A stretch of DNA of 64,000 bases from a virus. How positions within the stretch are numbered: the stretch's first letter is position 1; the number at the start of each line of letters is the position of its first letter. Positions 48,534 to 50,201 of the stretch are shown here, one piece after another. The stretch covers positions 126,285 to 190,284 of the IMG/VR virus record IMGVR_UViG_3300027815_000003. One strand, given 5' to 3'. A program made the position numbers and the translations under genes. The notes below the pieces were generated by a model. It was not told where the DNA came from. It did no database searches and saw nothing but the letters and a program-made list of their open reading frames with translations.

Positions 48534-48707
48534 GTTTCCCCTTTCAGATTTGTTATTGTTACTATATCATAATCTGGTTTGTTTGTCTATAAGTAAATTT
48601 ACGTAGATATTTTTAGAACAATAGCACTAAAATGAATGAACGTTCATTCAGTCAATGATATCAGAGTGATATCACTTTGATATGGTTCGGTTTAGATGTC
48701 ATTACCT

Positions 48708-48744
48708 GTTTCAATCCTCACCCCGCACTCAGGCGGGGTGCAAC
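48708..48744 (-). CRISPR. solitary 37-nt class 1-type CRISPR repeat (no array)
   Basis: GTTGCACCCCGCCTGAGTGCGGGGTGAGGATTGAAAC: internal 8-bp hairpin and canonical ATTGAAAC 3' end, in sense behind a cassette promoter. Confidence 0.85.
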
Positions 48745-48817
48745 GGCGCTCCCCTTTTTTTGTTTTATTTGATACTCTTACTGTACCATTAATGGTTGAC
48801 GAATGCAATACGTAGTT

Positions 48818-50201
48818 TTACGTATTAAAACAATAGCAATTGTTTGTTGGAATTCTGATAATCTTTTTTGTTTCTTTTCCGCCGATAGGTATAACTGGAA
48901 ATATGGCATTTCTAGCCCATTCCTCTTGGCTAAACGAATTTGAGATAAAGAGGGTATTACCGTCTGTAGGGTAACACTGATGGTAATGCATTTCCTTTAC
49001 CACGCTTTCATTGAATATCCCTAGATAATATACACCTTTGGATTGTTATAATCAATACGTAATTTTACGTATCTTTTATTTAGTTCTAAGACACTGTGCG
49101 TTAGTTCTATTGTTCTAATTCAGTGGATAAAGAGAAGGCGGGCTATTCTGCCCGCCTTACTTGACACAATGATTAAAGATAGTGATAATGTTCTGTCCTT
49201 GTCACGGTATCGGGTGCATTTAGCAATGTTACCCATACCTCCTGAACGTAATAGTCATCTGCCCTATTTGTCCTGGCGTCCTCATAACGCATCCTCTTTT
49301 GAAATACCCATCCAATAGGCTTTGCGTCGGGGTCAATGTATTGACGGGAGACATATTTTCCATATTCCTTTTGTAGGAATAGGAAAAGTCTCCTGATGTT
49401 GTCAGTAAATGGTTCATAAGGATCGCTAGTTCCAAGAATATACCCTTTGGTCTCATTGACGAACGTTTCCGTGATTAGTAGCATTGTTTTTTCCCTTCGC
49501 CGTTTTATTTTGATTTAGTATTACTATATCAGATTTAGGATGATTTGTCTATACGTAGTTTTACGTATTTTTCAGGAAAATTATTTCTCCACCAGAATGA
49601 ATTTCCATAACCGATTCCAGATCAATCATACGATATGCTTTTTCTGGATTAACTTGCGCAGCATATTGCATATCATATACACCTATTAGATTATGGTCTT
49701 CTGGCTTATATGCCATTCCTACACCCTTGACGTGTTTCTTGACTCCCAACCTACACGTCATGGTACGGCGTTCTCCAGTTGTCCGCTTAATAAAAATAGC
49801 GGTGAATATCCTACCGTTTTCGCCTGCCTTTAGGATTGCATCTTTGACAGTTTTAGGAGTCATTTATTTGTCTTTCTTTTCAGATTTGATGTTATTATTT
49901 TAGCATAGTCCAAAAGATAACACAATACGTATTTTTACGCACCCTCACAACATGCTTCATGATCGCTAATTGCAACGATTGCAGGATATCCAAAACTATA
50001 AGGAGTTTTAGGTGTTATTTCACAACGCATATATTCTTCAAGTGTTATTTCGCTAGGGTGAATATCGTGATATCGTTTCCCGTATTTATCCTCAATTATT
50101 TTTCTTTCACGCATTAGTCTATTAGACATACCGTTAGTATAACCTTCATTATCTGAAGCTATACGTAGTTCAGTATTATTCATTTCCCAAACTTCTTTCA
50201 T
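48818..50201 (-). other. cassette CDS (48818-49003, 49173-49484, 49561-49863, 49935-50201)
   Basis: Track ORFs. 49561-49863 has the F.KRT.GE.R.M.CRLGV pattern of SH3-like phage proteins. Confidence 0.7.

Follow-up and report, generated by a model that had tools for sequence, protein, structure and literature searches.

The last 64 kb of the 190,284-bp IMG/VR virus record IMGVR_UViG_3300027815_000003 (Ga0209726_10000078), a groundwater phage that is 94% complete according to CheckV, contain on the minus strand a 219-nt cassette with no credible open reading frame (ORF) whose cargo is a single repeat of the CRISPR type. This whole stretch of 64,000 nucleotides is called the window here, and positions refer to it unless another record is named. 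The elements of the cassette had been located in a preliminary description made from the letters of the DNA, and reading the sequence again confirmed the coordinates of its promoter, its repeat, the 33 nt that follow, the hairpin and the palindrome (Table 1). The promoter, from which transcription is inferred to start near 48773, was missed by a generic consensus scan because its -35 box matches only three of the six consensus bases. As far as the GGGGAG that resembles a ribosome-binding site (RBS), the leader is an ordinary one for this region, the same ATCAAA...GGGAG preceding protein genes in neighbouring cassettes, and the repeat begins at the position where a start codon is expected in such a cassette. 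In the predicted fold of the RNA, the repeat hairpin is followed by a single-stranded stretch and by two 3' hairpins (z = -3.0).

Table 1. Features of the repeat-bearing cassette and of a nearby gene, in window coordinates
Feature	Position	Strand	Basis or remark
TACGTA-N4-TACGTA palindrome	48823-48806	-	Opens the cassette, its end overlapping the first bases of the -35 box; exact motif match
Promoter: -35 TTGCAT (48808-48803), 17-nt spacer, TG-extended -10 TACAGT (48785-48780)	48808-48780	-	Sequence reading; same architecture as other cassettes
Leader, ~29 nt: ATCAAA box, A-run, RBS-like GGGGAG, then CGCC	48773-48745	-	Sequence reading
CRISPR repeat, 37 nt	48744-48708	-	Identical to metagenome array repeats
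Repeat 5' part: GUUG, then 8-bp G+C-rich stem with 6-nt loop (Cas5c substrate hairpin)	48744-48719	-	Minimum free energy and centroid folds; aligns to CRISPR-DR9 stem
Repeat 3' part, 11 nt AGGAUUGAAAC, predicted 5' handle; predicted Cas5c cut between 48719 and 48718	48718-48708	-	Type I-C literature
Spacer-sized stretch, 33 nt (33-mer)	48707-48675	-	Sequence reading
First 13 nt 3' of the repeat (seed position, proximal to a protospacer-adjacent motif (PAM), if a guide)	48707-48695	-	No counterpart in sibling
Ancestral 3' module: ATATCAnnnTG units, hairpin, terminator palindrome with T-run, TAGnnCTATTGTTCTA	48694-48611	-	Homology to repeat-less sibling
Three tandem 11-nt units ATATCAnnnTG	48683-48651	-	Make up the 48674-48656 hairpin; common to sibling
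Hairpin, 8-bp stem, CTC loop	48674-48656	-	Sequence reading, fold
Terminator palindrome, 18 bp, then TTTT (to 48629)	48650-48633	-	Sequence reading, fold
TAGnnCTATTGTTCTA motif	48631-48614	-	Part of 3' module; repeated-motif family D13
117-aa Cys-rich protein	47477-47830	-	PHROG 'Lar-like restriction alleviation protein', E 6e-8; endonuclease VII zinc-ribbon families

The repeat is a true CRISPR repeat, not a hairpin that arose by chance, and it is solitary, as had been proposed. The window has a single copy and the rest of the record adds none, even when up to three mismatches are allowed (shuffled sequences gave no matches). It matches the Rfam model CRISPR-DR9 over the full model in a local search with 34.2 bits and E 5e-6, below the gathering score of 45. 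Arrays on seven metagenome stretches, with 11-49 units and spacers of 33-38 nt, have repeats that agree with it in all 37 nucleotides. Metagenome-assembled genomes (MAGs) of Chloroflexi and Thermomicrobiales from groundwater contain arrays of a version with one mismatch and of a loop variant. On the two contigs L013 and L008 the exact-match arrays lie directly downstream of cas3-cas5c-cas8c(Csd1)-cas7c(Csd2)-cas4-cas1c-cas2, and the NCBIfam I-C models for Cas5c, Csd1, Csd2 and Cas1c all exceed their curated cut-offs on L013, so that the system can be assigned to type I-C. Since the arrays are on the same strand as the cas genes, the phage promoter drives the strand that corresponds to the sense of CRISPR RNA (crRNA). 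The preliminary description had noted that the window contains no cas gene, and this holds for the whole phage, in which none was found by tblastn with six host Cas proteins or with Cas5c and Cas7c profiles.

The owner of these arrays and the phage were present in the same sample. The absence of any host array sharing the repeat had been named as an outcome fatal to the proposal. This outcome did not arise, since one of the arrays beside a complete I-C operon is on contig Ga0209726_10007758 (L013), which comes from the same metagenome as the phage. Furthermore, the Logan assembly of two runs containing the phage breaks at the repeat, where G+C-rich array spacers branch off, and in the same two runs the 38-nt repeat unitig has a depth of ~438 against ~23 for the phage. 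The shared metagenome, together with the depth and branching of this unitig, indicates that phage and array owner co-occur.

In type I-C systems the stem is cut by Cas5c at its 3' base, which leaves an 11-nt 5' handle (PMC8524198), and the same 11-nt Cas5c handle is seen in small RNA sequencing of the I-C RNAs known as crlRNAs (10.1101/2024.12.27.630466). Because the system is type I-C, the 5' end of a processed product is expected at 48718, leaving the handle AGGAUUGAAAC, and the 8-nt ATTGAAAC predicted earlier was thus off by 3 nt. With its 37 nt the phage repeat differs somewhat in geometry from the four I-C repeats described in PMC8524198, which are of ~32 nt with overhangs of 2 and 11 nt, a 7-bp stem and a 5-nt loop. 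As a separate observation, the RBS-like GGGGAG (48745-48752 region) is 5 nt ahead of a TTG located inside the first four repeat bases on the minus strand. This TTG opens a mini-ORF of four codons (M-H-P-A-stop, 48741-48727) that extends across the repeat hairpin's 5' arm; ribosomes that load there may compete with Cas5c for binding, or the mini-ORF may be a vestige of a replaced gene.

Both the solitary repeat and its reading as a candidate RNA anti-CRISPR (Racr) are already published for this locus, which is therefore a real element of a known kind. In Camara-Wilpert et al. 2023 (PMC10651486, Supplementary file 3), a I-C solitary repeat unit (SRU) with 100% identity and coverage is given for Ga0209726_10000078 at positions 174992-175028, and these are exactly the positions of the repeat in the phage record. 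The same I-C unit is carried by a second IMG/VR virus, JGI1357J11328_10000227, at 28235-28271 (PMC10651486). Two features used in that work to recognise SRUs are found here, namely a match in sequence and structure to a known repeat and a solitary position, unlinked to cas genes, on a mobile element. What is new is the context of a cassette family, a sibling phage having the tail of the cassette and no repeat, the 11-nt handle, the negative results on targets and spacers and the gap in G+C content (GC) between phage and array owner.

As a class, SRUs are enriched for a match in subtype with the host, and several of them are functional (PMC10651486). RacrIC1 inhibits type I-C and protects a phage from such a system, and for the Cas proteins both RacrIF1 and even a plain non-targeting crRNA are competitors of targeting crRNAs (PMC10651486). 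Given these precedents, a decoy RNA of the Racr type ranks first among the readings of the cassette, and we favour it tentatively, at a level of confidence slightly below even. The cassette would be transcribed as an RNA of ~140-150 nt, whose repeat stem-loop would be recognised by the Cas5c of the host and cut at the 3' base of the stem. The downstream product would then begin with a true 5' handle of 11 nt and continue into phage sequence and a hairpin that does not derive from a repeat. Such a product could nucleate Cas5c, Cas7c and Cas8c into Cascade-like complexes devoid of a target, and by analogy with RacrIF1, RacrIC1 and non-targeting crRNAs these subunits would be drawn off the crRNAs that target the phage.

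Several observations agree with such a decoy. The repeat is the sole cargo of a cassette with promoter and terminator, it is in the sense orientation and it is located in a variable accessory region. Matching I-C arrays are found in the same metagenome, the phage is free of cas genes, RNA cargo is normal in the cassette family and there is no credible ORF. Like viral SRUs and RacrIC1 (PMC10651486), the unit is a single intergenic repeat behind a promoter, without cas genes and of the I-C type that matches the arrays of a co-occurring organism. Unlike RacrIC1, which is bicistronic with acrIC5, it is driven by a promoter of its own and no acr gene could be recognised beside it, acr genes within ~1 kb being a frequent and not an obligatory feature of SRUs (PMC10651486). 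Another difference concerns RacrIF1, which acts through the RNA upstream of the cut and without Cas5f and Cas8f (PMC10651486), whereas in the phage unit the long part is downstream and keeps the 5' handle. With a strong promoter of its own and the handle retained, the RNA could therefore form a complete but blind Cascade. If active, it would be a second type I-C RNA anti-CRISPR, and one from an uncultured groundwater phage.

Other results weigh against the decoy. No match to an anti-CRISPR (Acr) protein was found among ten neighbouring proteins scanned with PHROG and Pfam profiles or among three compared with PDB sequences, and small proteins without an assigned family remain among the neighbours. 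A mechanism like that of RacrIF1 would have to differ here because the part upstream of the cut has only ~29 nt. None of the 84 unique spacers of the exact-repeat arrays matches the phage and none of them is below 43% GC. The link to a host is indirect, the phage having 30% GC and the array contigs 60%. Finally, a sibling phage that is ~84% identical has no repeat at the homologous site, so that conservation cannot be invoked, and a neutral capture in the very recent past would explain the perfect identity to the host repeat (37/37) just as well.

The sibling is represented by the Logan contig L021, which encodes an 88% identical copy of the 57-aa protein upstream of the cassette and shows 84-85% DNA identity to the window over the two upstream genes. 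Past the 57-aa gene, L021 has a different promoter, a different leader of ~75 nt and no repeat, and identity is at chance level in the promoter and leader (36/85), in the repeat (10/37) and in the first 13 nt after it (4/13). Homology resumes at the equivalent of 48694, with 75 of 91 aligned columns identical to L021:1324-1416 (84% by blastn), and extends to ~48610. The shared tail covers the last 20 nt of the 33-mer, the ATATCAnnnTG units with their hairpin, the terminator palindrome and the TAGnnCTATTGTTCTA motif.

This comparison changes the interpretation of the layout. The repeat, the spacer-sized stretch and the hairpin had been taken as a crRNA mimic, and part of the case for a Racr had been built on that. 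A sibling that has no repeat and has the same tail (82-84% identity from 48694 to ~48610) indicates that the crRNA-like layout is partly inherited, predates the repeat and was not built around it. Furthermore, the 33-mer and the hairpin are not independent parts, since the last 9 nt of the former belong to the ATATCAnnnTG units. The proposal of a Racr agrees with the published listing, and the argument from layout is not supported. For surveys of SRUs the comparison is a caution, as the spacer and hairpin that follow a lone repeat can belong to older phage DNA and need not be part of a designed mimic. The ATATCAnnnTG units themselves are spaced by one helical turn and are conserved in the sibling (L021:1335-1368), where one non-compensated change weakens the RNA hairpin; they look more like an array of DNA-binding sites than like a selected RNA stem.

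The absence of the repeat from the homologous site of the sibling indicates that it is a recent gain in the phage, apparently added to what was already the tail of a small cassette. Homologues of window 46287-45947 form the next cassettes of L021, in which the Lar-like gene is elsewhere and five window cassettes are absent between homologous ones. Order and content of the cassettes differ so widely between the two phages that the region must turn over fast. Searches of IMG/VR with neighbour proteins or with the 3' module gave no related phages or only relatives with 40-47% identity, no SRU was found in seven related loci, and in run X3 a relative spanning the neighbouring genes appears only as short contigs of low depth.

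A recent gain in a shuffling region could have been neutral. One repeat of a host array could have recombined into the cassettes during infection with no benefit to the phage, whether or not it is now transcribed. The sibling with the same flanking gene and 3' module and no repeat, the fast turnover of cassettes and the complete lack of differences from the host repeat would all fit a very young insertion, and no target, adjacent acr gene or matching host spacer was found. However, the repeat is placed exactly at the cargo position, in sense, with full promoter, leader and terminator. It is exactly one whole repeat with clean ends, no remnants of a host spacer or leader being recognisable beside it, and the same unit is found in a second IMG/VR record. 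The class of SRUs is moreover enriched for the subtype of the host, with several functional members (PMC10651486). Such a neutral capture is on balance somewhat unlikely.

Apart from sequestering Cas proteins, an RNA with a true handle could also guide them. Host I-C crlRNAs, from the loci named Nezha and CRISIS, combine a single repeat-like unit and its 11-nt handle with a short guide, and they end at the 3' side within the loop of a hairpin that is not part of a repeat, with a length of 48-50 nt (10.1101/2024.12.27.630466), and viral Cracrs acting against I-C loci have been reported in Caudoviricetes (10.1101/2024.10.29.618823). The phage cassette resembles both in its single repeat unit with a Cas5c site, its 11-nt handle and its non-repeat 3' hairpin after 33 nt, and the product equivalent to a I-C crlRNA would have ~53-55 nt. 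The handle and the next 13-33 nt could then guide the host I-C Cascade to a partly complementary promoter site with a TTC or TTA PAM and silence it without cutting, the candidate targets being the promoters of the cas operon, of a CRISPR-linked toxin or of another defence system. In comparison with the sibling, both the repeat and the 13 nt that occupy the seed position are new.

The searches gave little encouragement to a regulatory role of this kind. crlRNAs and Cracrs are defined by a partial match to a promoter, flanked by a PAM and with at least nine PAM-proximal bases paired, and none was found for the phage unit, whose hairpin is furthermore inherited from an ancestor without repeat. 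A scan for PAM-proximal seed matches (at least 10/12, suitable PAM) over ~45 kb of host loci, which comprised arrays, cas genes and the stretch upstream of cas3, gave none apart from two chance matches inside spacers. A seed scan of the Chloroflexi MAG with the one-mismatch repeat, the nearest GTDB genome, gave nine matches against seven in the reversed control; the promoter test is a partial one, as the host genome is incomplete. In the host operon of the fetched loci, cas3 and cas5c are not separated by an inserted gene, and repeat-like units are confined to the arrays. The guide has 36% GC against 60% in the host, and the phage repeat is identical to the array repeat, while the repeats of reported crlRNAs are usually diverged. 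A regulatory guide of the crlRNA or Cracr type is accordingly quite improbable. We give the same low standing to the more general notion that a phage of 30% GC reprograms the Cascade of a Chloroflexota-like host of 60% GC through a hairpin-terminated guide, silencing a defence promoter or attacking a rival element. In an active guide the repeat and the new 13-nt seed would have arrived together and been grafted onto the old tail of the cassette.

Virus-borne mini-CRISPR arrays that serve in conflicts between viruses are known, and the phage shares with them a host-type repeat on a viral genome without cas genes. It differs from them in having one repeat, where mini-arrays have at least two repeats and spacers matching related viruses. 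By analogy, the RNA could arm the Cascade-Cas3 of the host against a competing phage, a plasmid or the sibling (a mini-array or homing-type use), and a handle-bearing RNA with ~33 nt ahead of the hairpin could assemble a nearly normal Cascade. The preliminary description had likewise considered a guide with one spacer, for which the 33-mer should have a target. None was found in the phage, the fetched loci, IMG/VR, INPHARED or the nearest GTDB genome. The 33-mer and its 57-nt extension matched only themselves in the phage genome and all fetched loci, a 33-mer pattern leaving every sixth base free had no matches in IMG/VR, and a 52-nt query against INPHARED gave only hits with E 0.3 or worse. 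The sibling does not appear to be the target either, its homologous site having AAC where the TTC PAM would be and only 4/13 matches in the seed. As the distal 20 nt are ordinary ancestral phage sequence and not an acquired spacer, a guide for interference is very unlikely.

The repeat could finally act as DNA, either as a site for recombination or integration with host arrays or through its hairpin as a plus-strand terminator. Integration mediated by repeats has been suggested for SRUs in literature quoted in PMC10651486, and a terminator-like hairpin with a T-run was also scored on the plus strand at 48735-48752. This hairpin uses only part of the repeat and its T-run is the complement of the A-run of the leader, no integrase and no plus-strand gene converging on the site was found, and 37 bp of homology are short for recombination. 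We consider a role at the DNA level extremely improbable.

The repeat had also been expected to identify the host, and it may do so through the exact-match arrays. We hypothesize that the host is the Chloroflexota-like owner of the arrays, whose array-bearing contigs have 60% GC. The exact identity over 37 nt, the co-occurrence in one sample and the tRNAs of the phage are in favour of this link; the composition and the spacers speak against taking the owner directly as the host. The phage has 30% GC overall, with 27% in most of the window, 38% in the cassette region and 36% in the 33-mer. When all 206 spacers were compared with the phage (122 of them unique, including those from variant-repeat arrays), the best match had 14 nt, as expected by chance. 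The phage has ten tRNA genes, several of which (Ile-TAT, Glu-TTC, Lys-TTT, Gly-TCC, Arg-TCT and Leu-TAA) read codons ending in A (AUA, GAA, AAA, GGA, AGA, UUA) that a G+C-rich host would be expected to serve poorly. Clues to the host of this 190-kb phage are few. The repeat is one of them, and it points to an organism with twice the G+C of the phage; if the link is true, the compositional gap would be unusually large.

The cassettes around the repeat form a large family. The TACGTA-N4-TACGTA motif has 51 matches in the window with up to three mismatches, against 0.15 expected, and ~40 cassettes with palindrome and promoter were found on the minus strand between 42700 and 63850, with 16 more at the start of the record (first ~40 kb). 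Their pattern consists of a TG-extended promoter of the sigma-70 type, a short ATCAAA leader and usually an RBS and a small gene. Two of them, each with its own promoter, carry tRNAs in place of genes, Arg-TCT (59104-59178) and Leu-TAA (62667-62743), so that RNA is a normal cargo for these cassettes. Most of the neighbouring genes code for small proteins without known families, the exceptions being a DUF2958 protein and the Lar-like zinc-ribbon protein. Judging by its profile matches, the latter may have an anti-restriction function; its gene is ~900 bp away from the repeat and would fit an anti-defence neighbourhood. The 57-aa protein encoded upstream of the repeat gave a PDB match to a crRNA processing protein (N-terminus, E 0.86) that was rejected, as the 57-aa protein neither resembles the host Cas5c nor matches a Cas5 profile. 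For the 60-aa protein encoded downstream there were only weak matches resembling C2H2 fingers, and no homologues were found.

Other cassettes have little or no coding content. The one at 46287-46013 (minus strand, 274 nt) has no ORF longer than 25 aa. In its counterpart in the sibling, L021:1453-1845, both ends are conserved at 86-95% and the middle differs in length. We regard this cassette as a small RNA candidate, for which Rfam gave no match. Another, at 45009-44834 (minus strand), is nearly empty, its promoter and RBS being followed by an ORF of 14 codons that leads directly into a hairpin of the terminator type. In addition, an element of ~48 nt is present in eight copies between 40692 and 49175, with a G+C-rich hairpin of the AAGGCGGGCC-GAAT-GGCCCGCCTT type followed by GCTTGACATAATG on the plus strand (families D6 and D7). 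It is found at the ends of minus-strand genes and is probably a terminator module shared by the cassettes. The G+C content of the window rises from 25-29% to 35-40% at ~38000 and falls back at ~54000, and this richer block is the part most densely occupied by cassettes, with few ORFs of more than 150 aa. In a contig of a distant relative (L023, JAXOUH010054371.1), positions 3158-3208 of the plus strand gave a match resembling a type III hammerhead ribozyme (39 bits, E 6e-5, below the gathering score of 48.5), which adjoins a cluster of nine tRNA genes.

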